A stretch of 64,000 nt of DNA from a bacterium (GTDB lineage: Bacteria > Patescibacteriota > Minisyncoccia > 2-02-FULL-40-12 > IGHO2-01-FULL-4-A). The DNA lies in contig JAUYLN010000020.1 of the NCBI GenBank assembly GCA_030698885.1, positions 7,346 through 71,345 of the forward strand. The letters are read 5' to 3'. Below the pieces are notes generated by a model. It did not search any database and was not told where the DNA came from. It worked only from the letters and a program-made list of their open reading frames with translations. A program made the position numbers and the translations under genes. Shown piece after piece: positions 18,528 through 59,100 of this stretch; within the stretch, counting starts at the first letter, position 1, and every line of letters starts with the position of its first letter.

Positions 18528-18532
18528 GATAC

Positions 18533-19475: not shown

Positions 19476-19508
19476 TTACAGCTTACAGCTTACAGCTTAC
19501 AGCTTTAG
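19476..19508. repeat. Heptamer tandem repeat (CAGCTTA) x ~4.5 between rplR and rpsE
   Basis: cttacagcttacagcttacagcttacagcttta, seen directly. Confidence 0.7.
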
Positions 19509-35251: not shown

Positions 35252-35332
35252 TCTACTAATTACTAATTTCATACTAATATACTAATCTATTTCTTATTCG
35301 TATATTAGTGATTTTATTAGTAATTGGTAGAT
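35252..35332 (+). repeat. Intergenic nested-palindrome element, copy M (upstream of the ftsB-like gene)
   Basis: TCTACTAATTACTAATTTCATACTAATATAC...GTATATTAGTGATTTTATTAGTAATTGGTAGAT. Confidence 0.8.
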
Positions 35333-35357
35333 AAACGATAAGTTTCATTATATCCTT

Positions 35358-38546: not shown

Positions 38547-38625
38547 GCCCAAAATAGATCATTTGACCCGCTTCCCGCCTTCTGCTATTATGTAGACAGG
38601 CTTAGGGCCTTTATTTTATTCTTAG

Positions 38626-38706
38626 TCTACCAATTACGAATTTTGTACTAATATACTAATAGAATTTAAATTCGTATATTAGTGATTTAATTAGTAATTA
38701 GTAGAT
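38626..38706 (+). repeat. Intergenic nested-palindrome element, copy N (upstream of rpsL)
   Basis: TCTACCAATTACGAATTTTGTACTAATATAC...GTATATTAGTGATTTAATTAGTAATTAGTAGAT. Confidence 0.85.
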
Positions 38707-38709
38707 AAT

Positions 38710-39120
38710 ATGCCGACTTTTAACCAATTAATGAAACACCCAAGAAGGGTAGCAAAAGCGAAGGATACTTCGCCTGCTTTGTCATTTAGCTTCAACACCA
38801 TACACAACAGACCGACATACAGTCCGGCTCCGTTTAAAAGAGGAGTCGTAACTCAGGTTAGAACTGTAACTCCGAAAAAGCCTAACTCCGCCTTGAGAAA
38901 AGTTGCCCGTATAAGGCTGACAAACGGTATGGAAGTAACAGCGTATATTCCGGGCGAAGGCCACAATATTCAGGAACATGCTGTAGTGATGATAAGAGGC
39001 GGAAGAGTAAAGGATTTGCCGGGTGTCAGGTATCACATTGTCCGAGGCAGATTAGATGCTGCCGGAGTTGAGAAGCGAAGGCAACAGCGTTCTAAGTACG
39101 GCGCCAAGCGCCCCAAATAA
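38710..39120 (+). CDS. rpsL: 30S ribosomal protein S12
   Basis: S12 homology (...[11 protein letters not shown]...). Confidence 0.95.
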
Positions 39121-39201
39121 TCTACCAATTACTAATCGGGTACTAATGTACGAATAAAATCAGGATTAGTATATTAGTGATTTAATTAGTAATTAGTAGA
39201 T
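39121..39201 (+). repeat. Intergenic nested-palindrome element, copy O (rpsL->rpsG)
   Basis: TCTACCAATTACTAATCGGGTACTAATGTACG...GATTAGTATATTAGTGATTTAATTAGTAATTAGTAGAT. Confidence 0.85.
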
Positions 39202-39206
39202 AATAT

Positions 39207-39674
39207 ATGCGACGTCCAATCAAAAAAAGAGCAGAAGCAGAGCCGGATGCAAAATATTCATCACCATTGGTGGTGCGTCTTATCAACCAGGTAATGAAAA
39301 AAGGCAAAAAGTCTATTGCTCAAAAAATAGTTTATAGCGCCATGGAAAAACTTGAAAGGCAAAGTAAAAAACCTGCCCTTGAGGCGTTGGTAGAGGCGCT
39401 AGATAATGCCGGTCCCCAGGTTGAGCTAAGGTCGCGAAGAGTCGGCGGAGCCAATTATCAGGTTCCTCATGAGGTCCGAGGAGACAGAAAAGTTACTTTA
39501 GCTTTGCGCTGGATATTGATTGCAGCCAGAAGCCAGAAAGGCAAACCCATGGATGAAAGACTGGCTGAAGAGTTAAATAATGCCATAAACAATACCGGAC
39601 TAGCCATTAAGAAGAAATTAGATACACACAAGATGGCGGATGCTAATAAGGCATTTGCCCATTTCTCTTGGTAA
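39207..39674 (+). CDS. rpsG: 30S ribosomal protein S7
   Basis: S7 homology. Confidence 0.95.
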
Positions 39675-42066: not shown

Positions 42067-42165
42067 ATAACTAGTTTATACAAAGGGCATCTTTGTAATT
42101 ACAAAGATGCCCTTTGTTGTGCCTGATACTGGATACTTAATACTTAATACGATATAATAATTTTA

Positions 42166-42882
42166 ATGAGACTATCCATAATAATTCCCGCTTACAATGA
42201 ATCAAAAAGAATTGAGAAGACGCTTCTTAGCGTCCATGAGTATTTATCCAAGCAAGATTATGAGTACGAGATATTAGTAGTGAATGATGGCTCAAAAGAT
42301 AATACAGCTGAGGTAGTTAAAAATCTTGAATCGCAGGTCAGGGGTTTAAAACTTATAGATAATAAAGAAAATCACGGCAAGGGCTGGGCGGTAAAACAGG
42401 GGATGCTTCAAGCAAAAGGCGAGGCGAGATTATTTATGGATGCTGATAACTCTACAACCGTTGACCAGGTTGCCGGTTTTTTGCCGTTTTTCGGGGAAGG
42501 ATTTGATATTGTTATCGGTTCCCGCCGGATTAAGGGCTCTGATATTGCGGTGCATCAGCCGTGGTTCAGGGATTTTCTCGGCGGAGCATTCAGACTTATA
42601 GTCCACATTTTGGTTCCGCTGGGAGTTACTGACTCTCAGGCGGGATTTAAAGTATTTTCGGCCAAAGCTACGGAGGCGATATTTCCAAGGCAGACAATAT
42701 TTCGCTGGGCGTTTGATGTTGAAATTTTGGCAATTGCCCGTAAAATGAAGTTTAAGATAAAAGAAGCACCGATAAAGTGGGTTAATGACACTGAAAGTAA
42801 GGTTAAACTGTCGGGCATGATAAAAATGTTGTTTGAAGTTATTCAGGTAAGATTGAATTTGTGGGGCGGGAAATATAAGTAA
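42166..42882 (+). CDS. Glycosyltransferase family 2 (polyprenyl-phosphate glycosyltransferase-like)
   Basis: MRLSIIIPAYNESKRI...VNDGSKD... Confidence 0.75.
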   Translation: MRLSIIIPAYNESKRIEKTLLSVHEYLSKQDYEYEILVVNDGSKDNTAEVVKNLESQVRGLKLIDNKENHGKGWAVKQGMLQAKGEARLFMDADNSTTVDQVAGFLPFFGEGFDIVIGSRRIKGSDIAVHQPWFRDFLGGAFRLIVHILVPLGVTDSQAGFKVFSAKATEAIFPRQTIFRWAFDVEILAIARKMKFKIKEAPIKWVNDTESKVKLSGMIKMLFEVIQVRLNLWGGKYK

Positions 42883-42964
42883 TCTACTAATTACTAATAA
42901 AATCACTAATATACGAATAAGATTAAAATTTAGTATATTCGTATCAGATTAGTAATTGGTAGAT
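42883..42964 (+). repeat. Intergenic nested-palindrome element, copy P (GT2->galT-like)
   Basis: TCTACTAATTACTAATAAAATCACTAATATACG...GTATATTCGTATCAGATTAGTAATTGGTAGAT. Confidence 0.85.
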
Positions 42965-42969
42965 GATTC

Positions 42970-43971
42970 ATGAATGAATTCCGACAAGATATAGTTTCCG
43001 GGGAGTGGGTGCTTTTTGCGCCTGATCGTGCTAAGCGTGGCATCAGGGTTTTGCAATGCGAAGAATTGAACAGAGATAAAGAAAAATGCCCCTTTGAAGA
43101 TTTAGAAGGTAACGGCAATACGGTTCTTAAAACATACGACTGGGACGGTTGGGACGGTTGGTTTGCAAAGGTTATAAATAATAAATATCCCGCTGTTGCG
43201 AGAAACTGTATTGACGAAGAGGCGGAAATTAAAAAAATTGGCCCCTTCAGAAGCACCGAGGCCCGGGGTGCGCACGAGGTAATAGTTTACGGCAATCACG
43301 ACAAACTGATGATGGAGTTTGATGAGAAAGAAATGGCCCAAGTATTCAGGATATATAAAGACCGTTATGAAGTTATAACCAAAGAATGTGCCAGTGAATT
43401 TATTCTGATATTTAATAATCACGGTTCAAAAGCCGGAGGCTCCCTATATCATCCCCATTCACAGATAATATCAACCCCCGTTATGCCACCGGATGTTGAA
43501 GCGAGCGTTAAGGGTTCGGAAAGATATTATATGGAATATAAGGAGAAGGTTTATGATGCCATGATTAGGTACGAGATGCAGGAGGGTAAGAGAATAATAG
43601 CGGAAAATGATGATTTTGTGGCATTCTGTCCTTTTGCTTCCAAGACTCCTTACGAGATGAGGGTTTTTCCAAAAGAGGATGGCGCGCACTTCAATGATAT
43701 ATCTGAAAATAATATCATTAATCTGGGCGATATAGTCAGTAAGATACTAAAAAAAATGGATAAAGTTTTAAAGAGGCCGGACTATAATTTTTTCATTCAC
43801 ACTTCGCCCTTGCATCGCCGCTGGGAAAAGCCCGAATATTTTTATACATGGCATATAGAGATATTGCCCAAGATATCTTTAGTCGGCGGTTTTGAAATAG
43901 GTAGTGGCATTTATGTGAATGTCATTGATCCGGATGATGCCGCAAGGCAGATGCGAGACGCTGAAATATAA
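42970..43971 (+). CDS. Galactose-1-phosphate uridylyltransferase-like (GalT/HIT superfamily)
   Basis: An N-terminal Cys/His cluster and ...GSLYHPHSQI..., an HxHxQ nucleotidyl-transfer motif. Confidence 0.6.
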   Translation: MNEFRQDIVSGEWVLFAPDRAKRGIRVLQCEELNRDKEKCPFEDLEGNGNTVLKTYDWDGWDGWFAKVINNKYPAVARNCIDEEAEIKKIGPFRSTEARGAHEVIVYGNHDKLMMEFDEKEMAQVFRIYKDRYEVITKECASEFILIFNNHGSKAGGSLYHPHSQIISTPVMPPDVEASVKGSERYYMEYKEKVYDAMIRYEMQEGKRIIAENDDFVAFCPFASKTPYEMRVFPKEDGAHFNDISENNIINLGDIVSKILKKMDKVLKRPDYNFFIHTSPLHRRWEKPEYFYTWHIEILPKISLVGGFEIGSGIYVNVIDPDDAARQMRDAEI

Positions 43972-44033
43972 TCTACTAATTACTCGTATGTTCCTTATTA
44001 GTATATTGGTGATTTTATTGGTAATTAGTAGAT
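43972..44033 (+). repeat. Intergenic nested-palindrome element, copy Q (galT-like->tpiA), short form
   Basis: TCTACTAATTACTCGTATG...TTAGTATATTGGTGATTTTATTGGTAATTAGTAGAT. Confidence 0.8.
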
Positions 44034-44037
44034 TTAC

Positions 44038-44799
44038 ATGAAAAAACTAATCATCGCAAACTGGAAAGATAACCCTGCAACCGCCAAAGAGGCGGAAGAG
44101 CTTTTTTATTTTTACTATGATGCCTATTCGGAATTAAGAGATAAGATAGACCTAGTCGTTTGCCCGCCAGCAGTCTATATTCAGGAGTTGGCTGCAATAT
44201 CAAAGAGCATGCCTCTGGGCGCCCAGGATGTGTCCTGGGAGAGTTCGGTGGGTCCTCATACCGGAGAAATTACTGCTGATGTTTTGAAAAATTTAGGCGT
44301 GGAGTACGTTTTGGTCGGACATTCAGAGCGCAGATACGGCATAGGCGAGAGCGATGAGGTTATAAGCAAAAAACTAAAGGCAGCCCTTTCTGCCGGATTA
44401 ACCCCGGTGCTTATCGTAGGAGAAAGGAATAATCAGGATGACCGTAAAAAAATAATTGAAGAGCAGTTAGCGATTGACCTGGATGCCCTGGATCCGGAAA
44501 GCGTATCAAAGATTATTCTGGCTTATGAGCCGGTGTGGGCTATCAGTACAAGCCAAGATGGTCATCCGGACACACCCCAAAACGCATTTGATGCACTTGG
44601 CGAAATTAAGAATTTCGTCTTTGAAACTTACCGGGTCAGGCCGGATGCGTATAGGTCCGTTTATGGCGGAAGCATTACCGAAGGCAATGTAGCTGCTTTT
44701 CTGGGTCATGATGAAATAAATGGCGCCCTGATAGGAGGAGCAAGCCTTCGCAAAGAAGAGTTCTCCAGTATTTTAAAGATAGTCAGCGAGCTTAAATGA
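44038..44799 (+). CDS. tpiA: Triosephosphate isomerase
   Basis: ...VLVGHSERR... and the TIM barrel motifs. Confidence 0.9.
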   Translation: MKKLIIANWKDNPATAKEAEELFYFYYDAYSELRDKIDLVVCPPAVYIQELAAISKSMPLGAQDVSWESSVGPHTGEITADVLKNLGVEYVLVGHSERRYGIGESDEVISKKLKAALSAGLTPVLIVGERNNQDDRKKIIEEQLAIDLDALDPESVSKIILAYEPVWAISTSQDGHPDTPQNAFDALGEIKNFVFETYRVRPDAYRSVYGGSITEGNVAAFLGHDEINGALIGGASLRKEEFSSILKIVSELK

Positions 44800-45923: not shown

Positions 45924-46062
45924 TTGACATTGTGTCAATTAATTAAAATCCTAAGTCCAAAATCCTAAATTCTAAATAAAATTGAAATTATAAATGGTTT
46001 GAAAATTGGGATTTTAGATATTGGGATTTGTTTAGAAATTAGATATTAGGATTTAGAAATTT
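45919..46062. repeat. Palindrome TAATTAATTGACA-TTG-TGTCAATTAATTA at the pgk stop, followed by a long imperfect inverted repeat of the AGGATTTAGAAATT family
   Basis: Left arm aatcctaagtccaaaatcctaaattctaaat; right arm atttagaaattagatattaggatttagaaattt. Confidence 0.55.
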
Positions 46063-46094: not shown

Positions 46095-46553
46095 ATGGTT
46101 AAGGCCGATATAAATAACAAGGAATTATATATAATCCACACTGATGGCGGTTCGCGGGGCAATCCCGGCCCGTCTGCTATTGGCGTGGTCATAGCCGATT
46201 ACGACGGTTCGCTTAAGAAAGAATATTCGGAGTACATAGGCGAAACAACGAATAACGAAGCCGAATACCAGGCCATAATTTTTGCTTTGAAAAAATTAAA
46301 ACAGCTTATCGGTAAGGAAAAAGCTTCAAATGCGAAGCTGGAATTTCATGTGGACAGCGAGCTTGCAGTTAAACAGCTAAACGGTGAATATAAACTGAAT
46401 GATAAAAATATTCAGAGATTTTTTATTGAGATTTGGAATAATAAATTAGATTACGGTGAGGTAACTTTTAAGCATGTGCCCAGAGAAGACAATAAAGAAG
46501 CCGACAAATTGGTAAATGCGGCCTTAGATAAAGAATTAAACAAATTATTTTAA
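46095..46553 (+). CDS. rnhA: Ribonuclease H (RNase HI-like)
   Basis: ...IIHTDGGSRGNPGPSAIGVV...NNEAEYQAII...HVPREDNKEADKL..., the DEDD catalytic residues. Confidence 0.75.
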   Translation: MVKADINNKELYIIHTDGGSRGNPGPSAIGVVIADYDGSLKKEYSEYIGETTNNEAEYQAIIFALKKLKQLIGKEKASNAKLEFHVDSELAVKQLNGEYKLNDKNIQRFFIEIWNNKLDYGEVTFKHVPREDNKEADKLVNAALDKELNKLF

Positions 46554-46557
46554 ATAA

Positions 46558-46639
46558 TCTACCAATTACGAATTAAATCACTAATATACGAATGAGAAGT
46601 CTTGATTAGTATATTGGTATAAAATTAGTAATTAGTAGG
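46558..46639 (+). repeat. Intergenic nested-palindrome element, copy R (rnhA->DoxX)
   Basis: TCTACCAATTACGAATTAAATCACTAATATACG...GATTAGTATATTGGTATAAAATTAGTAATTAGTAGG. Confidence 0.85.
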
Positions 46640-46648
46640 CATTGCACT

Positions 46649-48588: not shown

Positions 48589-48595
48589 TTATTAG

Positions 48596-48624
48596 AGTAT
48601 TAAGTAGTAAGTATAAAGTATAAG
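48596..48624. repeat. Variant of the pilin-associated repeat (AGTATTAAGTAGTAAGTATAAAGTATAAG) directly upstream of the sortase start
   Basis: It shares AGTATTAAG...GTAGTAAGTAT with the repeats at 54428, 55990, 56487, 58163 and 58664. Confidence 0.55.
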
Positions 48625-48650
48625 AACGTAAAAACTAAATCTATTATAAC

Positions 48651-48679
48651 AAATAAAGAGCGCATTGCGCTCTTTATTT
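48651..48679 (-). terminator. Terminator hairpin aaataaagagcgc-attg-gcgctctttattt after the surface-protein gene (minus strand)
   Basis: Perfect stem with flanking T/A runs. Confidence 0.6.
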
Positions 48680-48691
48680 GTTGAACCTGTT

Positions 48692-48718
48692 CCTTAATAC
48701 TTAACCCTTACTACTTAT
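48692..48718. repeat. Inverted variant of the pilin-associated repeat (CCTTAATACTTAACCCTTACTACTTAT) overlapping the surface-protein stop codon
   Basis: Reverse complement: ATAAGTAGTAAGGGTTAAGTATTAAGG. Confidence 0.55.
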
Positions 48719-49962
48719 TTATTCAGCCACACATTTGCCTTCTTTGGCATAAGCTCGTAGCCGAACATTAATGAGAGCAAGCCGGTCATAAAGAATGAAA
48801 TCATAAGCGATAAGAATATTCTGTCAAAACCGGTTAATGATACATCCGGAAGCTGGTCCATCTCGCCAAGTACAGCCGGGGTCGGAGTTGCTGGCGGGGT
48901 TGCTGTTGGGGTGGGAGATACGGTTTCAGCTCCAAGGACTGCCGAAGAGTTGGTTGTCGGGAAGAATCCGCCTCCACCTCCACCGCCTCCACCACCTCCA
49001 TTGGGCGTCGGGGTTGGGGTAGGAGTTGCAGATGGGGTAGGGGTTGGAGTGGGAGATGTCTGTGTGTTATTTAAACCAAAGTGTGCATTTATGGTTTGAT
49101 GGCTTGTTACGGTAAAAGTACAAACCGGATTTGTAGGATCGCTGACGCAGGGGCCAGAAGTCCAAGAGCCATCAAAGTTGGATCCTTCGTCAGGAGTGGC
49201 GTTCAAAGTAACTTCTGTTCCTTCTTCATATGTCTCTGAACAGTCGCTTTCCTCTGAATTGCTGTCGCAATTTATTAATTCATCTTCGTCATTAATAACG
49301 CCATCACCATCTCCGCTAGTTGTAATATCTACTGTGTAAGTTGGCGTCGGGGTTGGGGTAGGGGTATCACTTGGAGTTGGTGATGGAGTCGGAGTGTCAG
49401 AAGGAGTAGGGCTTGGGGTCGGTGTGTCTGAGGGGCTGGGGGTAGGAGTCGGTGTATTACTTGGGGCTGGCGTCGGGGTTGGTGTCGGGTCTACATCAAC
49501 GCAGATAGTTACAGAAGAAACTGCGTCTGCCTGATTGTCCTGTCCTGGTACTGTTTGATGATAAATACGAGCTGTAATAGTAAAAGGACCATCCGTAAGA
49601 TAGGTGTGAGTTGCACCGAAAGAACGTGTTTCTGTTCCGTGGTCTGGGTTTTGATTTAAACTAAATGTACTTGCCTCAGTTTGGTCATTAGTATTGCCAT
49701 CTCCCCAATCTATTTGTACGTGATATTGGCCAAGTTGACCCTGGGGGGCTGTTGCAGTTGCCGTTCCCGAGACTGTTACTTCACCACCGATGTTGCAATC
49801 GTCACCGCTAATAGGACTAGTGATATTAACTGAAGTTGCCGCAAATACACTAAACGGTATGGCCTGCAATGTCATGGACATTACGAATGTTAATATGAAA
49901 AAACTGGCCAAAAACTTTGGCCTACGACCTGTTGAGAAAAATCCTATATTGCTATTTTTCAT
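48715..49962 (-). CDS. Secreted cell-surface protein with Pro/Thr linker repeats, a Gly11 run and a C-terminal hydrophobic anchor plus KK tail. It is a candidate sortase substrate.
   Basis: Signal peptide; (TPTPSPSDTP)n; GGGGGGGGGGG; C-terminus ...LPDVSLTG...hydrophobic...PKK. Confidence 0.6.
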   Translation of the reverse strand: MKNSNIGFFSTGRRPKFLASFFILTFVMSMTLQAIPFSVFAATSVNITSPISGDDCNIGGEVTVSGTATATAPQGQLGQYHVQIDWGDGNTNDQTEASTFSLNQNPDHGTETRSFGATHTYLTDGPFTITARIYHQTVPGQDNQADAVSSVTICVDVDPTPTPTPAPSNTPTPTPSPSDTPTPSPTPSDTPTPSPTPSDTPTPTPTPTYTVDITTSGDGDGVINDEDELINCDSNSEESDCSETYEEGTEVTLNATPDEGSNFDGSWTSGPCVSDPTNPVCTFTVTSHQTINAHFGLNNTQTSPTPTPTPSATPTPTPTPNGGGGGGGGGGGFFPTTNSSAVLGAETVSPTPTATPPATPTPAVLGEMDQLPDVSLTGFDRIFLSLMISFFMTGLLSLMFGYELMPKKANVWLNK

Positions 49963-50348: not shown

Positions 50349-52799
50349 ATGAATAAGTACATTGCGGTTTGTCTGCTTGCGGGCGTGTTGGTTTTGGGTG
50401 GTATAAGTTTGGCTTATGGCGAGTCTTCACCAACCTTAACTACAGATAAAGATGATTATTTGATAGGAGAGACTGCCACTATCTCCGGCCTGTCATTTAA
50501 CCCATCAGAGAATTTTAATATTAAAGTATATGGGGGAAGCGATGCTGATGGAACTTACACCGAAACAAATGATGTCGTTGCAAGCGATGAAAATGGCAAA
50601 TTTATTTATTCATATACTCTTGATTTAGTTTACAGGCCCTTATATGTGGTTGCGGTCAGTGATTTAAATGGTGTTGAATTGGCAAGAACCACATTCACTG
50701 ATGCACCACCCGCAGTAAGCCTTGAACAATGTAGAAATGGAGCGGTGGGGACACCTAATAATTGTGAAGATCTAGGCGGTGGAAGCGGCTGGGTTTCCGG
50801 TAATGTTGGAGCCTCGCAGGGGCATTACTTAGAAGGACACTCCATTCCATATAGGGCAGTTTTAACAAACCTTCCGGTTAATACGCCAATAACTCTAACT
50901 CTGGGATATGATATAAAACATAGCGGTGCTCATGCTATAGACTATTTGACTCATTTTGATCGTCTTGATCCACATACCCAGTTCAGTCATTCTGCCGAAA
51001 GTGTAAATCCGACTGATGGTGTTTCGGGATTTTCTGCAACCACAACGACCTTTACTGTTCTGGCGCCTGATACTATAAATTCTCCGGTTTTTGGGCAACC
51101 AGCTACAAGCTTCAATGCATTACTTGCTGGCGAGAGGGTTATGACATTATTTGGAGGAACTATTTCTGGCATCTCGTATGATACTGATGGTGATTTAACT
51201 GCTGCACAATCTGAAACTAGGATTACCGTTACATTTAGTGTTGATGATTCTACTGCAGTTCTCGCATGGGGTGGCCATATAGCTACCCAAGAAGATTGGG
51301 GCGTTGGTCAATCTGCAGGAGGAATTAGCGGTTCTCCTTACCATATGCGTTTAATTGACTGGAATTTAAATAATCTCGGCAACACAGATCGCTCTCTTTC
51401 TGCGGCAGTAATTCTTGTTCCCCAACAGGCCACACTTACTCTTTTGAAGGATGTAGTTAATGACAATGGCGGAACAGCTTTGGATACTGCCTGGACTCTT
51501 TCCGCAAACGGTCCTACTCCGGTTTCCGGAGTTGAAGGCGATGTAGCAGTTACAGATGCTTTAGTTGATGCCGGAGAATATACTCTTTCAGAATCAAGCG
51601 GCCCTTCAGGTTATACTGCTTCTTCATATAGTTGTGTTGTGAATGGCGAAAATCCCGTTGTCGGTAATTCATTAACTCTTGCTCCTGAAGATGTCGCAGT
51701 TTGTACTATCACCAATGATGACGATGCCCCTTCCCTTACTTTGGTAAAGGAAGTTGTTAATGATAACGGTGGAACCGCAGTGGCAGGCGACTGGACACTT
51801 ACTGCGACCGGCTACGATTCAGTTTCTCCTGATGCAGGCACTTATGACCTTTCAGAATCAGGCCCTGACAATTACACTCAGACCTCTTTGACCTGCGATA
51901 ATGCCGAAGGACAGGTTACTTCAGTAACTCTCGGTCTTGGTGAGGATGTCACCTGCACATTTGTAAATGATGATCAGCCTGCTAAGTTGACTATAATAAA
52001 AGATTCAGATCCGAATGATACCCAGGATTTCAATTTCTCGGGTACATTAGGCGCATTCGTATTGGATAATGATGAAGGAGTGCAGGATGTAGAGGATAGT
52101 GCCACTCCAGACAGAAAGACATTTGATGACTTATCAGCAAACCAAGTTTATACCGTAACCGAAGGACCGCAGCCAAGCACATATTGGACATTTGTCGGGG
52201 TTAGCTGTGTGGATACAAATACTCAAGAAGTATATCCGGCAACCGTTGATGGCCAGAGCATATCAGTTGAGCTTGTTTTAGATGGAGACGTTACCTGCAC
52301 ATTCGTAAATCATAAAGACAGCCCATCCAGAACTCTTGGTTTCTGGAAGACACATACTGAATATACGACCAGTATATTTGAGAATCAGCTGGGGAGCAGC
52401 ATAACCTTGGGTGATGGAGGAGAGCACCAGGATGTGATTGCTTCACCGTCCGCATTATTCGGTGCGTGGTATTCAAACGTTTCACAGAAATCAATTGGTA
52501 AAGGCAAGAATGCACGAAGATCCACGGTTGACCAGGCCAGAATGCAGTTGGCATGGCAGTGGTTGGCGGCAAAACTAAACTGTGCGGCATTCGGATGCCC
52601 AAGTGATGTGCAGACGTTGCTTAGTGATGCCAGCACGGTTTACGCAGTAGGTGATGTAGGCGCAATGCTTAACTATGCCGGTCAGCTTGATATCTTTAAT
52701 AATGCCAGCGACTCAATCGTTATAGATGGTGATGTTGGCAAGGCAACTCCGAAATTATCACAGACTCTCGCAGATCTTCTGTTCTGGGACACACCATAA
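50349..52799 (+). CDS. Large secreted protein with three tandem beta-sandwich-like repeats (LTL[V/L]K[E/D]VVNDNGGTA...)
   Basis: Signal peptide; repeated ~100-aa units seen in the translation; no obvious C-terminal sorting signal. Confidence 0.6.
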   Translation: MNKYIAVCLLAGVLVLGGISLAYGESSPTLTTDKDDYLIGETATISGLSFNPSENFNIKVYGGSDADGTYTETNDVVASDENGKFIYSYTLDLVYRPLYVVAVSDLNGVELARTTFTDAPPAVSLEQCRNGAVGTPNNCEDLGGGSGWVSGNVGASQGHYLEGHSIPYRAVLTNLPVNTPITLTLGYDIKHSGAHAIDYLTHFDRLDPHTQFSHSAESVNPTDGVSGFSATTTTFTVLAPDTINSPVFGQPATSFNALLAGERVMTLFGGTISGISYDTDGDLTAAQSETRITVTFSVDDSTAVLAWGGHIATQEDWGVGQSAGGISGSPYHMRLIDWNLNNLGNTDRSLSAAVILVPQQATLTLLKDVVNDNGGTALDTAWTLSANGPTPVSGVEGDVAVTDALVDAGEYTLSESSGPSGYTASSYSCVVNGENPVVGNSLTLAPEDVAVCTITNDDDAPSLTLVKEVVNDNGGTAVAGDWTLTATGYDSVSPDAGTYDLSESGPDNYTQTSLTCDNAEGQVTSVTLGLGEDVTCTFVNDDQPAKLTIIKDSDPNDTQDFNFSGTLGAFVLDNDEGVQDVEDSATPDRKTFDDLSANQVYTVTEGPQPSTYWTFVGVSCVDTNTQEVYPATVDGQSISVELVLDGDVTCTFVNHKDSPSRTLGFWKTHTEYTTSIFENQLGSSITLGDGGEHQDVIASPSALFGAWYSNVSQKSIGKGKNARRSTVDQARMQLAWQWLAAKLNCAAFGCPSDVQTLLSDASTVYAVGDVGAMLNYAGQLDIFNNASDSIVIDGDVGKATPKLSQTLADLLFWDTP

Positions 52800-52851: not shown

Positions 52852-53034
52852 ATGAAACTCTTCATGAAGATTCCATAAACTTGAGATTAAATAAAGCTTA
52901 GCATATAATAACATAATTAATTTTGGCCCGCAAAACAGTGATAGGACAGCATACTTGCCAAAAATAACAAATTGTGATATTATATATACAGTAAAAAGGC
53001 TTAATGCCTTTTTGCGTTAAAAGCGCTATTATCA

Positions 53035-53197
53035 GAACTTGTCCAAAAACCCTCTTTCGTCGCGAAATTGCAGAATTTTGAGCGAGACACTCCGGCGGAA
53101 AACGAAGCATATCCTTTGATATGGTGAGTTTGAGCCGTTGGGTGTCGCAGCCGAAATTCTGCAATTGCAGCAGAATACGGGGTTTTTGGACAAGTTC
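53035..53197. promoter_or_regulatory. Nested long-range inverted repeats in the pilB leader: GAACTTGTCCAAAAACCC ... GGGTTTTTGGACAAGTTC (outer) and CGAAATTGCAGAATT ... AATTCTGCAATTGCAG (inner)
   Basis: Two perfect or near-perfect inverted-repeat pairs ~130 bp apart, ending 10 nt before the pilB ATG. Confidence 0.5.
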
Positions 53198-53207
53198 AAG
53201 GCCTTTT

Positions 53208-54425
53208 ATGACCAAAACTAAGTCAGAAAAAGAAATAAAAAAGGGGGCAGAAATATCAGTTATCACACTGGTGGACTCTTTGATTGAAGATGCCCACCAG
53301 GTAAATGCTTCCGATATTCATATTGATGCCGGCGAAAAATCGGCCAGGGTCAGGTTCAGGGTTGATGGCGTTTTACAGGATATGTTTGAATTGCCATTGG
53401 GCCTGATGCCTGAAATTATTTCCAGAATAAAAATATTGACCAACCTAAGAACTGATGAGCACAAGGTTCCGCAGGACGGTCGTTTCAGGCTAGTCATTGA
53501 AAAAATCGGACCGGTTGATGTCAGGGTGGCCATTACCCCGACTTATCACGGTGAAAGCGCCGTTTTGCGTTTATTGTCTTCCGACCAGTCCGGCCAATAT
53601 AGTCTTGAGTCTTTGGGTTTTGAAGAGCATGACAGAGAAAAAATATTGAAAGCCGTTCAGAATCCTTACGGAATGATTTTGGTTACCGGACCGACCGGCT
53701 CAGGTAAAACAACCACTCTTTATACGATATTAAAAATTTTAAATACAAATGATGTTTCAATCATTACGATTGAAGACCCGATTGAATATGCCATTGATAA
53801 TATAAAGCAGGTTCCGGTCAGTGCCAGAACCGGTCTAACCTTTGCCAGCGGTCTGCGCTCCATGTTGAGGCAGGACCCGGACATTATCATGGTGGGTGAG
53901 ATTAGGGATGAGGACACTGCCGGCCTTGCGGTCAATACCGCTTTGACCGGTCACCTTTTACTTTCAACATTGCATACAAATGATGCGGCTACGACTTTGC
54001 CCAGATTGTTAGACATGAAGATAGAGCCATATTTGGCTTCGTCCACTGTTAACGTTGCCATCGGCCAGAGATTGGTCAGAAGGATCTGCGAAGGCTGTAA
54101 GGTTCAGAAAAATATTACCGAAACTGAGTACGAGAGCCTTGTAGAGGTTTTGGGTAAAAACATAGTCGGATCAAGTAAAAAGTTTTATAAAGGTTCAGGT
54201 TGCGATAAATGCAATCTGACCGGTTATCGCGGAAGATTAGTAATAGACGAAGTTATGGTCATTGATGACGAGATAAGGGAGGCTATCTTAAAAAAAGGTT
54301 CTTCAAGCGATATAAAAAATATTGCAATAAAGAATGGCATGACCACGATGATAGAAGACGGAATTAGAAAAGCCGCGAAAGGAATGACGACGATACAGGA
54401 AGTGCTGAGAGTGATACATGAATAA
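53208..54425 (+). CDS. Type IV pilus/type II secretion assembly ATPase (PilB/GspE family, short N-terminus)
   Basis: Walker A GPTGSGKTTTLY, Asp/His boxes and a tetracysteine motif CEGC...CDKC. Start set at MTKTKSEK (the track ORF starts at 53121 inside the inverted repeats). Confidence 0.8.
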   Translation: MTKTKSEKEIKKGAEISVITLVDSLIEDAHQVNASDIHIDAGEKSARVRFRVDGVLQDMFELPLGLMPEIISRIKILTNLRTDEHKVPQDGRFRLVIEKIGPVDVRVAITPTYHGESAVLRLLSSDQSGQYSLESLGFEEHDREKILKAVQNPYGMILVTGPTGSGKTTTLYTILKILNTNDVSIITIEDPIEYAIDNIKQVPVSARTGLTFASGLRSMLRQDPDIIMVGEIRDEDTAGLAVNTALTGHLLLSTLHTNDAATTLPRLLDMKIEPYLASSTVNVAIGQRLVRRICEGCKVQKNITETEYESLVEVLGKNIVGSSKKFYKGSGCDKCNLTGYRGRLVIDEVMVIDDEIREAILKKGSSSDIKNIAIKNGMTTMIEDGIRKAAKGMTTIQEVLRVIHE

Positions 54426-54427
54426 TT

Positions 54428-54460
54428 CTAAGTATTAAGGAATAAGTAGTAAGTATTAAG
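54428..54460 (+). repeat. Pilin-associated repeat (CTAAGTATTAAGGAATAAGTAGTAAGTATTAAGC) directly upstream of the four-helix-bundle gene
   Basis: Same unit as upstream of each pilin gene. The first ~20 nt of the downstream CDS are also conserved. Confidence 0.8.
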
Positions 54461-54461
54461 C

Positions 54462-54842
54462 ATGGATACAAAAACAAAAATTGAAAGCTTTACCGATTTA
54501 AAGGCATGGAAAGAAGGGCATAGGCTTGTCCTGGACGTTTATAAGATTAGCAGGGAGTTTCCCAGAGAAGAGATGTTCGGCTTGGCCAATCAATTAAGGC
54601 GTGCAGTCGTATCAATCACATCAAACTTGGCCGAAGGATTTAGTAGAACATCCTATAAGGACAAGATAAAGTTTTATTCTATATCATTAGGGTCTTTAAC
54701 TGAAGTGCAAAACCAGTTATTGATATCCCGAGACATTAATTATTTGAACAAAGAAAAATTTGATATTTTAGCACAACAAACAATTTTGGTAAGTAAGTTG
54801 GTTAATGGTTTAATTAAAAAATTAAAAACCCTTAATACTTAA
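54462..54842 (+). CDS. Four-helix-bundle protein (TIGR02436 / 23S-rRNA-intervening-sequence-protein family)
   Basis: ...FTDLKAWKEGHRLVLDVYKISREFPREEMFGLANQLRRAVVSITSNLAEGFSR...ISLGSLTEVQNQL... matches the family signature. Confidence 0.6.
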   Translation: MDTKTKIESFTDLKAWKEGHRLVLDVYKISREFPREEMFGLANQLRRAVVSITSNLAEGFSRTSYKDKIKFYSISLGSLTEVQNQLLISRDINYLNKEKFDILAQQTILVSKLVNGLIKKLKTLNT

Positions 54843-54860
54843 TACTTGCTACTTAATACT
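54831..54860 (-). repeat. Inverted copy of the pilin-associated repeat (CTTAATACTTAATACTTGCTACTTAATACT) overlapping the 4HB stop codon
   Basis: Reverse complement AGTATTAAGTAGCAAGTATTAAGTATTAAG. Together with 54428-54460 it brackets the 4HB gene with inverted repeats. Confidence 0.7.
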
Positions 54861-54867
54861 ATTCGTC

Positions 54868-55989
54868 ATGAGCTTCATTAAATCAAACAACCCAACATTT
54901 AATAAGGAAATTTCATTTAGCTTGCCTAAGTGGATGCCTTTCGGCAGATTGTCGGTCAAAGACCAGGCGGTTTTTGCCAAGAGATTATCGTTTTTGATAA
55001 AGGCCGGCGTGCCGATATTGGACGGCATCAGGATGTTAAACAAGCAGACTAAGTCCGGTTCCAAAAAGAGGATATTGGAGCAGGTTTTAAGCGACGTTTC
55101 ACAGGGCCAGCTTTTGTCCGCCAGCTTTGCCAAATCCCAGAAAGTATTCGGCGAATTCGGCATTAGCATGATAAAAGTCGGTGAAGAGGGCGGTATTTTG
55201 GATGAAAACCTGAGCTATCTTGCCGAAGAGTTGAGAAAGAGCCATCGCTTGAGGAAAAAGATAAAAGGCGCGTTGGCCTATCCGGCTTTTGTTACTTTTG
55301 CTACTATCGGCATAACCGGTTTTATAACCGCTTTTATATTCCCTAAAATTTTGCCTATTTTTGCTAATTTTGGAGCCGAACTTCCGGTAACAACCAAGGC
55401 CCTCATAATTATAAGCACATTTCTTCTTCATTATGGCCTAGCGCTTTTAGCTGGCCTTTTTGTCTTATCTATTTTTCTATACGGAGTGTATCTTAAGGCG
55501 GGGCCATTCAGGATGACTGTGGACAGAGGCGTTCTCTCTTTGCCGATATTCGGCAAAATGATTAAAGATTACCAGATGGCAAGTTTTTGCCGAACTTTTG
55601 GGCTGCTTCTAAAGAGCCAGCTGGATGTTGTTAAGGCAACTCAGATTACAGCTCACACGCTTTCAAATCATGTTTATCAAAGAGAAATTAAGGCCCTCTC
55701 GGTTAACATTACAAAGGGTAAAAATATCGCTGAGTACATAAGCCAGAATCCTTATTTGTTTCCGGAAATGGTTTTACAGACCTTATCGGTCGGCGAATCA
55801 ACCGGTCATTTAAGCGACAGCTTGCTTTATCTTTCCGATTATTACGAGAACGAAGTTGAAGAAACAACCAGGAATTTATCAAGCACTCTTGAGCCGGCCC
55901 TGATGGTAGTCATGGGTGTCGTGGTTGGATTCGTGGCTTTAGCTGTTATCACTCCGATTTATCAGATAACTCAAAATATTCATCCGTAA
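54868..55989 (+). CDS. Type IV pilus/type II secretion platform protein (PilC/GspF family)
   Basis: Three TM segments with two GspF-like cytoplasmic domains. Confidence 0.8.
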   Translation: MSFIKSNNPTFNKEISFSLPKWMPFGRLSVKDQAVFAKRLSFLIKAGVPILDGIRMLNKQTKSGSKKRILEQVLSDVSQGQLLSASFAKSQKVFGEFGISMIKVGEEGGILDENLSYLAEELRKSHRLRKKIKGALAYPAFVTFATIGITGFITAFIFPKILPIFANFGAELPVTTKALIIISTFLLHYGLALLAGLFVLSIFLYGVYLKAGPFRMTVDRGVLSLPIFGKMIKDYQMASFCRTFGLLLKSQLDVVKATQITAHTLSNHVYQREIKALSVNITKGKNIAEYISQNPYLFPEMVLQTLSVGESTGHLSDSLLYLSDYYENEVEETTRNLSSTLEPALMVVMGVVVGFVALAVITPIYQITQNIHP

Positions 55990-56023
55990 CTAAGTATTAA
56001 GGGATAAATAGTAAGTATTAAGC
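55990..56023 (+). repeat. Pilin-associated repeat (CTAAGTATTAAGGGATAAATAGTAAGTATTAAGC)
   Basis: It starts right after the pilC stop and ends at the pilin ATG. Confidence 0.8.
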
Positions 56024-56485
56024 ATGAATACAAAAACAAAAAACAATCAGTGGGGGTTCACTGCCGTAGAGGTTTTAATGGTTATTGGAATTTTTTCGCT
56101 TCTGGCCGGCCTGGGTCTTTTTATCAGTATGGATTTCTACAGAAGTTATTCTTTCAGGTCTGACAGGGATATGACCATCAGTATTCTGGAAAGAGCCAGA
56201 GCTCAGTCTTTGGCCAATATTAATGAATCGGCCCACGGTGTTCGCTTTGATTCCGGTTCATCCAAGTTAATATTATTTCAGGGTAATTCATATGATGACA
56301 GAGACACCTCGCTTGACCAGGAAATATCTTTAAATTCAGGCATAGCAGTAACCGGCATAAATGAGGTTGTGTTTGAACAACTGACGGGTAATGCAGTATA
56401 TTCTGGAGCCGGAAATATGATTTTAAGCTACGGAGCCCAAACCGCGACGATATCATTTAATGGAGAGGGGAGGATAAATTACTAG
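56024..56485 (+). CDS. Type IV prepilin/pseudopilin (class III signal MNTKTKNNQWG|FTAVE)
   Basis: Leader ending in Gly, mature N-terminus F-x-x-x-E5 followed by a hydrophobic helix. Confidence 0.7.
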   Translation: MNTKTKNNQWGFTAVEVLMVIGIFSLLAGLGLFISMDFYRSYSFRSDRDMTISILERARAQSLANINESAHGVRFDSGSSKLILFQGNSYDDRDTSLDQEISLNSGIAVTGINEVVFEQLTGNAVYSGAGNMILSYGAQTATISFNGEGRINY

Positions 56486-56486
56486 C

Positions 56487-56518
56487 AAGTATTAAGGGAT
56501 AAGTAGTAAGTATTAAGC
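56487..56518 (+). repeat. Pilin-associated repeat (CAAGTATTAAGGGATAAGTAGTAAGTATTAAGC)
   Basis: Located between the stop of pilin 1 and the ATG of the next gene. Confidence 0.8.
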
Positions 56519-58171
56519 ATGAATACAAAAATAAAAAACAATCAGAGGGGGTTCATCCCGCACCTTTCTGGCAATTGCCTTCGGCATAACAGGCCTCTTT
56601 GCGGCGTTTGCCAAAAAGGTGCGGGATTCAGCACTATTGAGATAGTGCTGGCTTTTGCGATAATCATTGTCGTGCTGTCGGCTATAATTTTAGTTGTGTT
56701 CGGCAATCAGACTGTTGCCGTGGATAATGAGATAAATAACGAGGCATTGTACAAAGCGAAAGAAATTGTTGAGACGGCCCGTGCTGATGCCAAGGAGGAT
56801 TTTTATGGTTTAGCCGGGAGTACCTCTCTTGATGATATTTACACAAAAGTTCTAGGTATATCTGATATTAATCTTTGCAAAAAAAGCATTACCGGAACGG
56901 TTTCATGGCAGACTGAACCTGACAGGCCTCTTGAAATATCTATCAACAGCGAAGTCTCAAGTATTTTTGACGCCCTTGCCCTGGGTGGCGACTGCGGTTC
57001 TGATACCCCCCCGATAAGCGAGTGGTGGTTTCCGAGGACATTTAAGGATTATGACCTAAAGACAATAGAGCCTCCGGCAGAACAGTCGGGGAATGCTGGT
57101 GTTCCGGCAACAAGTATTGATGTCGTTAAGCAGGGGGGCAGTAAATACGCAGTCTTAAGTACCGCACATAATTCAGAAAATGATATCTGGATAATTAATG
57201 TTGACGATAGTTTAAATGCATTTATAGTGAGTTCGCTTGAAACAGAAAGCGTTGGTCTTAATACTGCGGATGTGGCAGGAGGCCTTGCTTATGCCTTAAG
57301 CGTAGGTTCACCCACGACACAACCTTCCGAATTACAAATTATAGATATAAGTACAGTTAGCGCGCCCGCACTCTTGGCTACCAAGTCTTTGGATATTTTC
57401 GGTGCAGATGCCGAGAATTCACCGAATGCAAATACTATTTATTACTTTGACGAAAAAATATATGTCGGTACGCATAAAACAGGAGGCAAAGAATTTCAGA
57501 TTTTTAGTGGTGTTGCACCATATGAGAAGGTTGCAGAGCTAGAGATAAACCACAACATTAATGACATAGTTGTCAGGGGTGATTATGCCTATTTGGCTAC
57601 ATCGGATGATGGCTATGCAATAAATGGTGGGGCAGGTGAGCTTATGGTTGTTAACATAAATCCGTTAAGCCCAGAAGAATATATGGTTCACCCTGATGTA
57701 ACTGGCATGTGGTACGATGCCACCAAGGGTTTTGACGCTATAAGTCTTTATTTGCTAGGCAATAAGATTTATTTAGGCAGGCAGGGCGGTAATTATGTTA
57801 AAACAGAAGCGTTCAATTTTATGATATTAGACATAACTGACCCGCATGCAATCACGGAGCTTGGTTCAAAATTTATTCCTACTAACGAATCACCAAATAA
57901 GGCCGCGGGGATTAAGGATTTTCAAATAGTGAGCGATTTTGCATTTATTGCAACAGATGTAGATAACTTGGACTTTCAGGTTTATAGAGTAAGCGATCCA
58001 ACTAATATTCTAAATTGCAGTGAGCTGACTCCTCCTCCTGCGTCTAACTGTGGTAAATATGATTTTCCGGCAAAAATGGTAGATCTCGAATTTAGCGATA
58101 ACCTCATTTATGCAGCCATTGAAAGTAATGCAACTTTCAGGATAATTTTTGATGATATAACCAAGTATTAA
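56519..58171 (+). CDS. Large (550-aa) pilin-like protein, a putative tip or minor pilin. It has an unusually long leader containing two G|F junctions and an in-frame 13-bp-stem hairpin.
   Basis: MNTKIKNNQRG-FIPHL...QKGAG|FSTIEIVLAF: the second junction has E5 and a hydrophobic helix. The C-terminal ~450 aa form a globular domain. Confidence 0.6.
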   Translation: MNTKIKNNQRGFIPHLSGNCLRHNRPLCGVCQKGAGFSTIEIVLAFAIIIVVLSAIILVVFGNQTVAVDNEINNEALYKAKEIVETARADAKEDFYGLAGSTSLDDIYTKVLGISDINLCKKSITGTVSWQTEPDRPLEISINSEVSSIFDALALGGDCGSDTPPISEWWFPRTFKDYDLKTIEPPAEQSGNAGVPATSIDVVKQGGSKYAVLSTAHNSENDIWIINVDDSLNAFIVSSLETESVGLNTADVAGGLAYALSVGSPTTQPSELQIIDISTVSAPALLATKSLDIFGADAENSPNANTIYYFDEKIYVGTHKTGGKEFQIFSGVAPYEKVAELEINHNINDIVVRGDYAYLATSDDGYAINGGAGELMVVNINPLSPEEYMVHPDVTGMWYDATKGFDAISLYLLGNKIYLGRQGGNYVKTEAFNFMILDITDPHAITELGSKFIPTNESPNKAAGIKDFQIVSDFAFIATDVDNLDFQVYRVSDPTNILNCSELTPPPASNCGKYDFPAKMVDLEFSDNLIYAAIESNATFRIIFDDITKY

Positions 58172-58194
58172 GGGATAAGTAGTAAGTATTAAGC
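58163..58194 (+). repeat. Pilin-associated repeat (CAAGTATTAAGGGATAAGTAGTAAGTATTAAGC)
   Basis: Immediately upstream of the pilin ATG at 58195. Confidence 0.8.
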
Positions 58195-58665
58195 ATGAAT
58201 ACAAAAAGAAAAAACAATCAGAGGGGATTCACTTTGGTGGAGGTGCTCATCTACACGGTTTTAATTATGTTTATACTTGGCGGAATGCTTTTGGCCGTCT
58301 ATAACATTGTTGAAGGAAGTACGGCCCTTGGCCAGGATGTGATTATTCAAGAAGAGGCAAATTTTCTGCTTCGTAAAATTGAGTGGGCATTGAGCGGGGC
58401 CAGCGATATCAATACTCCGAATTCAGGAAATAGCGGGAATGTGCTTTCGGTTGATAAAGATTTAAACACCATACAGTTTAATCTTGATTCAGGTAATTTA
58501 AGGATTGATAAGGGGAGCGGTCCGATAATACTAAACAGCGAGTATGTTACGGTTTCCAGTTTGAGCTTTGAGCATATTCCCGCAAGCGGAACCGGTCCAG
58601 CAGCGGTTCGTGCCGAATTTTATGTTGACGATAAATACTTCAATTTAACGAAGTACCTTCGTTAA
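58195..58665 (+). CDS. Type IV prepilin/pseudopilin (MNTKRKNNQRG|FTLVE)
   Basis: Class III signal with E5 and a hydrophobic N-terminal helix. Confidence 0.7.
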   Translation: MNTKRKNNQRGFTLVEVLIYTVLIMFILGGMLLAVYNIVEGSTALGQDVIIQEEANFLLRKIEWALSGASDINTPNSGNSGNVLSVDKDLNTIQFNLDSGNLRIDKGSGPIILNSEYVTVSSLSFEHIPASGTGPAAVRAEFYVDDKYFNLTKYLR

Positions 58666-58695
58666 GTATTAAGGGATAAGTAGCAAGTATTAAGC
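58664..58695 (+). repeat. Pilin-associated repeat (TAAGTATTAAGGGATAAGTAGCAAGTATTAAGC)
   Basis: Overlaps the stop of pilin 3 and ends at the ATG of pilin 4. Confidence 0.8.
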
Positions 58696-59100
58696 ATGAA
58701 TACAAAAATAAAAAACAATCAGGAGGGATTTATCGCGCTGGTGTCAGCAATCGTAATATCTCTTGTATTGATGGCGATAGTTTTCTCCCTAAGTTTTAGG
58801 GGATTTTTCGGGCGCTTCAATCTTCTGGACAGCGAATTTAAAGAAAGAAGCATCGCTGTCGCTGAAGCTTGCGGTGACAATGCATTGCTTCGCTTGGCCC
58901 AAGATATAAACTATGCAGGCAGTGAGAGCTTTGATATAGGAGATGATACTTGTAAAGTTTTGCCGATAAATAATATATTAAGTCCCAGGGTTATCTATGC
59001 TACGGCTAATGTATATTCAGCTGTTACAAATCTGAAGATAACGGTTGATGAAGCCACTCTCTCCGTCAGCTCTTGGCAAGAAATTCCGAAACGGCCCTAG
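58696..59100 (+). CDS. Minor pilin-like protein lacking Glu5 (MNTKIKNNQEG|FIALVS)
   Basis: Same conserved leader, but the mature +5 residue is Val rather than Glu; it could be a GspK/PilX-like minor pilin. Confidence 0.55.
   Translation: MNTKIKNNQEGFIALVSAIVISLVLMAIVFSLSFRGFFGRFNLLDSEFKERSIAVAEACGDNALLRLAQDINYAGSESFDIGDDTCKVLPINNILSPRVIYATANVYSAVTNLKITVDEATLSVSSWQEIPKRP

Follow-up and report, generated by a model that had tools for sequence, protein, structure and literature searches.

The window analysed here, a stretch of 64,000 nucleotides from contig JAUYLN010000020.1 of a member of the Patescibacteriota, contains a pil operon in which pilB and pilC are separated by a short gene for a four-helix-bundle protein. 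The gene upstream carries a T2SSE domain; the GspE and PilB models are its best fits, but it stays below the equivalog cut-off of each (TIGR02538, 478.8 bits). The gene downstream carries two T2SSF domains and is followed by four pilin-like genes (at 56024, 56519, 58195 and 58696). The position between pilB and pilC given in the original prediction is thereby confirmed. The subject of this report is the 432-bp unit formed by the gene and two inverted arrays of 7-nt repeats (heptamers) at 54429-54860 (see Table 1 for all coordinates). We regard this unit as probably a self-contained cassette of the intervening sequence (IVS) type that was inserted between pilB and pilC, and not as a component of the pilus.

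The protein encoded by the cassette has 126 residues. Profile searches with its open reading frame (ORF) gave 123.3 bits for PF05635 (23S_rRNA_IVP; cut-off 33.8, E = 6e-36, profile positions 2-106 of 106) and 117.1 bits for TIGR02436 ('four helix bundle protein'; cut-off 24, E = 4e-34, positions 2-109 of 109), in agreement with the family proposed in the original prediction. An AlphaFold model computed from 28 sequences, with a mean predicted local distance difference test (pLDDT) score of 90.5, has four long helices at residues 10-30, 41-61, 65-91 and 97-125, while residues 1-8 are disordered. When the family profile was compared with the PDB, it matched 2GSC (Xanthomonas XCC0516, E = 2e-25) and 2RLD (E = 2e-6). 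From these scores and the predicted four-helix up-down fold, the protein can be assigned to the PF05635/TIGR02436 family, which is known from IVSs of 23S rRNA. An alignment with 27 homologues from Patescibacteria (63-72% identical to the window protein) contains 39 invariant columns, indicating that the protein does something. No other copy of the gene was found within the window by tblastn. PADLOC gave no match for the protein, and a role in a defence system was dropped. The sole PHROG match is a weak one (PHROG 3206, 'Avd protein of DGR', i.e. of diversity-generating retroelements), and no relative was confirmed in IMG/VR; a phage origin of the gene was therefore rejected as well.

Both the start codon and the stop codon of the gene are embedded in heptamer arrays, which are inverted with respect to each other. 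The cassette takes up nearly all of the spacer, leaving 3 nt on the side of the pilB stop codon (54425) and 7 nt on that of the pilC ATG (54868). Tandem Repeats Finder reports a period of 7 with 4.6 copies for the left arm. The inverted repeats noted in the original prediction are present as arms of 30 nt each (54431-54460 and 54831-54860) with 87% complementarity. Their duplex is predicted at -27.0 kcal/mol (z = -6.1, 1000 shuffles), and the pairing appears in both the minimum free energy fold and the centroid fold of 54420-54870 (451 nt), whereas each arm folded by itself is unstructured. The energy of the whole-cassette fold is unexceptional (z = -1.33), so that only the terminal stem stands out. 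The right arm pairs as well with the arrays ahead of the four pilin genes described below (-24 to -27.2 kcal/mol). No convincing strong promoter or terminator was seen next to the cassette; a promoter-like site is located at 52881-52909, upstream of the pilB-type gene. In an independent assembly, a Logan contig of SRR13727534 agrees with window positions 53870-54860 at 991 of 991 nt. Its end coincides with the final base of the right arm, which is what one would expect of assemblers breaking at repeated arrays.

Homologous genes and their arrays

At E ≤ 1e-5 the window protein has 2678 relatives. The best 120 of these are 64-76% identical to it; where the source is named, they belong to lineages of the Patescibacteria or candidate phyla radiation (CPR) or to unclassified bacteria, and many are located on very short contigs. 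A scan of the GTDB species representatives yielded at least 587 relatives, from which the best 79 loci with 80 genes were kept (individual loci are given below by L numbers).

Inverted repeats with a score of at least 10 flank 73 of the 80 genes compared with 3 of 395 control window pairs (medians 16 and 6). In the 42 nt around the start codon, the mean self-match is 0.57 at period 7 as against 0.23-0.35 at periods 4-6 and 8-10. The heptamer varies from locus to locus, GAATTAT and its variants being commonest, followed by GTATTAT and then by AGTATTA, the type of the window; the general form is G-W-A-T-N-A-N. The two arms match each other within a locus better than across loci (median complementarity 16 and 9, respectively), and the arm duplex reaches -28.4 kcal/mol within a cassette compared with -13.1 kcal/mol with a shuffled partner. 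As in the window, the arrays encode the start codon and the first residues (for example, ATGAATCAAGAA for MNQE) as well as the last residues and the stop codon (ATAATTCATAATTCATGA for IIHNS and stop). The arms are polar, with G in the left and C in the right arm in 370 pairs versus 53. Protein identity barely tracks the arm class (0.658 versus 0.633), and a co-divergence of protein and arm type was rejected. These comparisons show the cassette to be one instance of a family-wide architecture. The original prediction had spoken of a captured or mobile cassette. Mobility is upheld, while a merely captured gene is not, as the heptamers before the ATG and the terminal stem are also those of ORF-bearing rRNA IVSs. 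In some cassettes the arrays are nested, for instance in L013, where an outer CTCAAAN pair surrounds an inner GAATCAA pair (about 3625-3670 and 4061-4110), and likewise in the flanks of L133; such nesting points to array hairpins that were layered or repeatedly inserted into.

The neighbouring genes lie on the same strand upstream in 76 of 78 loci and downstream in 74 of 77, typically at distances of about 20 nt, so the cassettes are wedged within operons. Their products are diverse, with 95 Pfam families upstream and 78 downstream. Recurrent neighbours (upstream and downstream, respectively) are the ATP synthase alpha/beta and gamma subunits, the small and large chains of carbamoyl-phosphate synthase, and GyrB-type and GyrA-type domains. 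Other recurrent families are subunits of pyruvate:ferredoxin oxidoreductase (PFOR), thymidylate synthase, PrgI of type IV secretion systems (T4SS), pilin and TraG. Counted per side and not per locus, these neighbours fit insertions at the atpA-atpG, carA-carB and gyrB-gyrA junctions. An rRNA context was not found by Rfam in any of the 14 homologous loci examined. In 16 of 78 other loci, the cassette has additional arrays or ORF-less hairpins of its heptamer type within 4 kb, most of them short hairpins ending just ahead of the ATG of the next gene.

Homologues outside the Patescibacteria are accompanied by similar repeats. A tblastn search against plasmids gave 28 records, mostly from Nostocales, other cyanobacteria and Riemerella. 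Thirteen of them, from Cyanobacteria, Bacteroidota and Azospirillum, were inspected: every one is flanked on one or both sides by short tandem arrays, mostly with units of 7 nt, and in at least 10 these form inverted pairs. Among the units are GGGTGTA/TACACCC (Calothrix), GGGAGTA (Nostoc edaphicum), CAGGAGT (N. punctiforme), AAGGTTY (Riemerella) and GACAGAG/GACGGAG (Azospirillum). For Xanthomonas, Rehm et al. (2015) record in their supplement a GGGAATC array at XCC0516, 'overlapping the start codon' and 6 nt from bccP; XCC0516 is the protein of PDB entry 2GSC. In rRNA, insertions of Patescibacteria occasionally carry a PF05635-type domain (PMC11270868). On cyanobacterial plasmids, cassettes are also inserted in cas operons, namely between cas10/cmr2 and cmr3, between cas6 and cas4, and beside cas4 (L127 Picosynechococcus, L128 Pseudanabaena and L133 Anabaena sp. 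90), which may explain why 23S_rRNA_IVP is found among the 'CRISPR-associated' domains in PMC10910872.

Pilus operons and the module shared with pilin genes

Type IV pilus loci make up 6 of the 79 loci, and the cassette occupies differing junctions in them: pilB-pilC in L054, a distant Parcubacterium, pilC-pilin in L002 and L019, and positions beside or between pilins in L079, L022 and L041. The four-helix-bundle proteins of these six loci are 60-71% identical to the window protein, apparently whatever the distance of the host. Identity is 67% for L002 and 64% for L054, where the PilC proteins are 69% and 35% identical, respectively.

L002, a metagenome-assembled genome of Yanofskybacteria, is the closest relative that shares the synteny, its gene order being pilB, pilC, four-helix-bundle gene, pilins 1-4. 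Here, a plain 23-nt spacer separates pilB and pilC; the cassette occupies instead the junction of pilC and pilin 1, the very place of a solo array in the window. L081, a metagenome contig with the closest PilC (80% identical to that of the window), carries ORF-less hairpins at both places (336-446 and 1665-1790). The one between pilB and pilC is built from a different heptamer, ACATTTG (-33.3 kcal/mol, z = -3.1), the one between pilC and pilin 1 from an AAAGCGC-type unit. None of the 44 PilC loci from metagenomes contains a four-helix-bundle gene at all; a PilB-like gene lies upstream in 35 of the 41 that include the PilC N-terminus. Thus, the insertion between pilB and pilC is lineage-specific and the arrangement not universal among relatives, which supports the earlier view of a mobile cassette rather than a core pilus component. 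At the junctions of this operon, array elements are rapidly gained, lost and exchanged.

In the window, the left-arm sequence recurs with at most two mismatches directly before the four pilin-like genes (55993, 56488, 58164 and 58665), five matches in total with none expected. Relative to the four-helix-bundle ORF, the common module spans about -32 to +19, and pilin 1 differs from it at three positions. On the coding side, the four pilins are identical to each other over about 36 nt (MNTK.KNNQ.GF) and to the four-helix-bundle gene over 19 nt (ATGGATACAAAAACAAAAA). The four-helix-bundle gene of L002 starts with ATGAATACAAGTACAAAAA after an AGTAGTA-type array, and the four pilins of L002 have four different leaders without arrays. 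Moreover, heptamer arrays reach into the start codon and the first codons in most of the 80 homologues from Patescibacteria (period-7 self-match of at least 0.6 in 41 of 80). The module is thus most simply seen as native to the cassette, and it is more likely that it spread from there to the four pilin genes in the window lineage than the reverse. The original prediction, in which the N-terminus was fused to a 5' cassette of the pilin genes, had recognized the common module correctly; the direction is probably the opposite one. Pilin leaders are cleaved off by prepilin peptidase, which would explain why pilins tolerate array-encoded residues.

Contacts between arrays and pilins also occur in other loci. 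The start codon of pilin 1 falls in the right arm of the cassette in L002, and one pilin of L022 begins inside an array. In L019 (3995-4921), the four-helix-bundle ORF reads through the right array (IQNSKFKIQNS) into the pilin (NSG/FTLLELIVV), giving a product of 308 residues. Two database proteins of 221 residues each (P0080 and P0082) combine PF05635 with a T4SS_pilin domain.

Relation to known elements and possible mode of action

ORF-bearing IVSs of 23S rRNA are known from Coxiella and have also been reported in Leptospira, Brucella and Xanthomonas. The Coxiella element, of 428 nt, carries three to four GACAGAT heptamers right before the ATG of the S23p gene; its terminal stem measures 28 bp, and the element is a substrate of RNase III in vitro (PMC4990558). 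The window cassette shares with it an ORF of PF05635 ('S23p'), terminal inverted repeats giving a stem of about 28-30 bp, heptamers immediately upstream of the ATG (TAAGTAT in the window) and the length (432 versus 428 nt). However, its host site is an mRNA spacer between protein genes and not helix 25 or 45 of 23S rRNA (in the window Rfam detects no rRNA and two tRNAs only), and its ORF is intact and highly conserved whereas that of Coxiella is decaying. The cassette thus has the terminal stem of the rRNA IVS class and lacks the defining feature, the location in rRNA. RNase III excision has been demonstrated for the Coxiella element only (PMC4990558).

Intergenic heptamer repeats have been described as short tandemly repeated repetitive (STRR)-type sequences in cyanobacteria, as GGGAATC in Xanthomonas, as GGGGA(C/T)T in Nostoc and as TAACTGA in Beggiatoaceae, Cyanobacteria and Bacteroidetes. 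Arrays and inverted pairs are abundant in Xanthomonas, Nostoc and Beggiatoaceae, where they were treated alone, as G-quadruplex or translational elements, without reference to the four-helix-bundle or IVS family (PMC4692102, PMC4679880). The tandems of the window resemble them in being intergenic, often directly ahead of start codons and often arranged as convergent inverted pairs, and such arrays flank the four-helix-bundle genes on plasmids of Nostoc, Calothrix and others and cover the XCC0516 start in Xanthomonas; the window unit differs in being AT-rich and of another sequence. As with MITEs (miniature inverted-repeat transposable elements) or repetitive extragenic palindromic (REP) sequences, their hairpin-forming doublets (REPINs) and REP-associated tyrosine transposases (RAYTs), a protein-coding version and many ORF-less hairpins share their arms in one genome, and the elements are intergenic and variable between close relatives. 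Unlike in those systems, the window protein has no recognizable transposase or nuclease domain, the arms are tandem heptamers instead of unique inverted terminal repeats, and no clear target-site duplication is seen at the cassette.

Our best guess at the mechanism, drawn from this analysis, is co-transcription, pairing of the arms and excision by RNase III. The cassette, for which no convincing promoter or terminator of its own was found, would be transcribed together with the pil operon. In the transcript, a stem of about 26 bp would form from the two arms and hold or hide the AUG and the stop codon of the cassette. By analogy with the Coxiella IVS, RNase III may then cut this stem, releasing the four-helix-bundle mRNA and leaving separate pilB and pilC messages, so that the insertion would be tolerated. 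At the DNA level, the cassette or its ORF would move or be exchanged between array-bearing junctions, probably by recombination at the arrays; insertion into pre-existing array hairpins is an alternative route. Either would fit the finding that arm type and protein do not co-diverge and that, within a genome, one heptamer type is common to the cassette and the ORF-less copies. In the window lineage, the four pilin genes would have received copies of the left arm and the first codons in their cleavable leader regions.

Several observations weigh against an IVS-type cassette of this kind. With its strong conservation, the protein should have a real function, on which the cassette model is silent; the most interesting possibility is that the protein acts on the heptamer arrays themselves. 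The cassette encodes no recombinase or transposase, its only ORF being the four-helix-bundle gene, and no close relative able to act as a vector was found in viral contigs, none being confirmed in IMG/VR. No clear target-site duplication was seen, only a 3-nt TTC at both ends, which is not significant. The stem is AU-rich and has two internal loops (helices of 9, 6 and 11 bp). Arm mismatches in the survey comprise 54 G.U and 57 A.C pairs and thus show no wobble bias, i.e. no sign of selection on the sense RNA rather than on DNA symmetry. Finally, heptamer-periodic sequence precedes 44 of 404 (11%) other genes in the surveyed loci as compared with 41 of 80 (51%) four-helix-bundle genes. The enrichment of about 4.6-fold is not exclusive, and the arrays may be a host feature in which the gene merely sits.

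To a purely DNA-level explanation we give a small chance: the arrays would be intergenic features of the host that arise by slippage and recombination, the ORF a passenger in hairpin loops, and the arms without a role in RNA. The balanced mismatches and the missing co-divergence of arm type and protein would suit this explanation, as would the arrays at other genes, the twelve further palindromic elements and other array families in the window that lack a four-helix-bundle gene, and the abundance of heptamer arrays by themselves in Xanthomonas, Nostoc and Beggiatoaceae (PMC4692102, PMC4679880). It is opposed by the enrichment at four-helix-bundle genes, the polarity of the arms and the fact that the arrays supply the start and stop codons of the gene; moreover, the stem of the homologous rRNA IVS is a proven RNase III substrate. 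Rather unlikely, although with somewhat more in its favour, is a protein that functions as a putative trans-acting RNA or DNA binder of the arrays and controls processing, translation or stability of the genes that bear them. The cassette and the four array-prefixed pilin genes would then form a small regulon, and the gene would matter for pilin expression. The same left-type array stands directly before five genes, that for the four-helix-bundle protein and those for the four pilins; the single right arm pairs with any of the five to the same degree, and arrays of like type accompany the cassettes in 16 of 78 other loci. Also consistent with a binder are the conservation of the protein, the pentameric rings of relatives (five chains in entry 2GSC, a homopentamer according to PMC4990558) and the relationship to Avd, a nucleic acid-handling accessory protein (PHROG match). 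Cassettes recur in pilus loci, and T4SS proteins are the commonest ones downstream (PrgI in 6 of 77). Yet a protein about 65% identical throughout is paired with heptamers as different as GAATTAT, GTATTAT, AGTATTA, GGGTGTA, AAGGTTC and others, and its identity hardly follows the arm class. The closest relative, L002, has the cassette together with array-free pilins, and most cassettes reside in operons unrelated to pili.

Two further explanations fare worse. An integral, vertically inherited component or chaperone of the type IV pilus machinery of this lineage is very improbable. The gene is co-oriented with and tightly packed in the pil operon, and L054 also has it between pilB and pilC; nevertheless, it is missing at this junction in L002 and L081 and from all 44 other PilC loci, so that its position is not a conserved one, and like cassettes adjoin the genes for ATP synthase, carbamoyl-phosphate synthase, gyrase, PFOR, thymidylate synthase and others. 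Barely credible, finally, is an Avd (accessory variability determinant) gene, or its remnant, of a DGR aimed at pilus or surface proteins. Avd belongs to the same four-helix-bundle superfamily, variable surface proteins are encoded nearby, and weak matches were obtained for bAvd (PF22296, 21.5 bits), NF033474 (22.8 bits) and PHROG 3206. The first two fall well short of their curated cut-offs (40 and 80 bits, respectively). In place of a reverse transcriptase the neighbours are pilB and pilC, and the sole RVT_3 match in the window (46095-46553) is an RNase H-type protein. A pair of template and variable repeats (TR/VR) or a long direct repeat pair was not seen around the cassette. The neighbours in the 79 loci are housekeeping genes, and the reverse transcriptase family is absent from the 25 commonest neighbour families on either side.

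Beyond the preferred reading of an inserted IVS-type cassette, we tentatively consider a wider one, which we hold to have a real though clearly less than even chance: PF05635 genes and heptamer tandem arrays may be the two halves of one widespread, so far undescribed system. If this were true, the protein-coding cassette would be the autonomous form. Its non-autonomous derivatives or cis-sites would be the many ORF-less hairpins and solo arrays, among them the STRR-type repeats of cyanobacteria, the GGGAATC repeats of Xanthomonas and the hairpins between genes in Patescibacteria. The four-helix-bundle protein would act on 7-nt arrays to spread, maintain or process them, rRNA IVSs would be the special case of a landing in rRNA, and in the window genome four pilin genes would owe their present 5' ends to the system. 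The role of the ORF in rRNA IVSs and the 7-nt intergenic tandem repeats of cyanobacteria, xanthomonads, Bacteroidetes and others have been loose ends for decades; another is why small 'four helix bundle protein' genes are scattered through assemblies of Patescibacteria and coincide with their breaks. That the ends of the gene are physically linked to inverted heptamer arrays, in 73 of 80 homologues from Patescibacteria and in most of the 13 inspected from other phyla, suggests that these are one phenomenon, and opens the question to simple binding and cleavage assays. Intergenic heptamer arrays and the PF05635 family were already known. The cassette in protein-coding operons and the link between protein and arrays appear to be new, as full-text searches found no paper linking the family to heptamer arrays or operon insertions. 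The consequences would extend to annotation, since core operons (those for ATP synthase, carbamoyl-phosphate synthase and gyrase, pil and cas genes) are apparently interrupted by the cassettes, which can yield fused or array-encoded N-termini.

Further arrays and hairpins in the window

Table 1. Positions of the cassette, its neighbours and related array elements in the window
Feature	Position	Strand	Remarks
PilB/GspE-family assembly ATPase gene	53121..54425	+	T2SSE, E = 3e-124
Whole cassette, 432 bp	54429..54860	+	Left heptamer array, four-helix-bundle ORF, inverted right heptamer array
Left arm	54429..54461	+	TAAGTAT, TAAGGAA, TAAGTAG, TAAGTAT, TAAGC; leads directly into ATG
Four-helix-bundle ORF	54462..54842	+	126 aa; PF05635/TIGR02436, 23S rRNA IVS protein family
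Right arm	54831..54860	+	Inverted heptamer array, CTTAATA x4.3; overlaps last three sense codons and stop codon
pilC/GspF-family platform protein gene	54868..55989	+	Two T2SSF domains, E = 4e-53
Solo left-type array and shared 5' coding module, pilin-like gene 1	55991..56059	+	ATGAATACAAAAACAAAAAACAATCAG...; N_methyl 20.6 bits, just under the 21.2 cut-off
Solo left-type array and shared 5' module, pilin-like gene 2	56486..56554	+	
Solo left-type array and shared 5' module, pilin-like gene 3	58162..58230	+	N_methyl motif
Solo left-type array and shared 5' module, pilin-like gene 4	58663..58731	+	
ORF-less hairpin of TAAGTAT-type arrays around terminator-like GC stem	48595..48724	.	Between two minus-strand genes
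Solo right-type array	42133..42150	.	ATACTTA x2.6; just upstream of gene 42166..42882
Palindromic element of about 85 nt, copies 1-6	10993-11082, 11484-11604, 14822-14900, 17706-17798, 17988-18063, 18453-18534		
Palindromic element of about 85 nt, copies 7-12	35250-35340, 38622-38711, 39117-39208, 42878-42971, 43967-44039, 46553-46648		

The ORF-less hairpin of the cassette's own heptamer type has a predicted energy of -44.9 kcal/mol (z = -8.2). In addition, the window contains twelve copies of an intergenic palindromic element whose arms consist of TACTAAT/ATTAGTA-type units (consensus TAATCTACCAATTACTAATAAAATCACTAATATACTAAT...ATTAGTATATTAGTGATTTAATTCGTAATTAGTAGAT). Most copies finish within about 10 nt of the next ATG, and several adjoin genes for ribosomal proteins (L23, L16, S8, S12 and S7 were checked); one copy is predicted to fold with -26.9 kcal/mol (z = -5.2). 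Other array families are TTAGAAA/AAATCCT heptamers at 13071-13107 and 45946-46061, with an imperfect inverted pair at 45.9-46.1 kb, GTAAAGCC/GCTCTATG 8-mers at 15757-15783, 16233-16304 and 24551-24611, and a perfect CTTACAG x4.4 array at 19475-19505.

Pilin-like gene 2 contains a GC-rich hairpin of 75 nt (CCCGCACCTTT...AAAGGTGCGGG, 56555-56627, -43 kcal/mol, z = -4.5) in frame within its leader-coding region. The hairpin stretches the leader to about 37 residues before the G/FSTIEIV motif, and an 11-mer of one of its arms recurs at 47591. The view of gene 2 as a grafted module ahead of a second prepilin motif was replaced by such an in-frame insertion. Just upstream of the pil operon, two genes encode predicted surface proteins, one of 415 residues with long Pro/Thr/Ser repeats and a Gly run (48715-49962, minus strand) and one of 816 residues with SpaA-type prealbumin-fold domains (50349-52799, plus strand).

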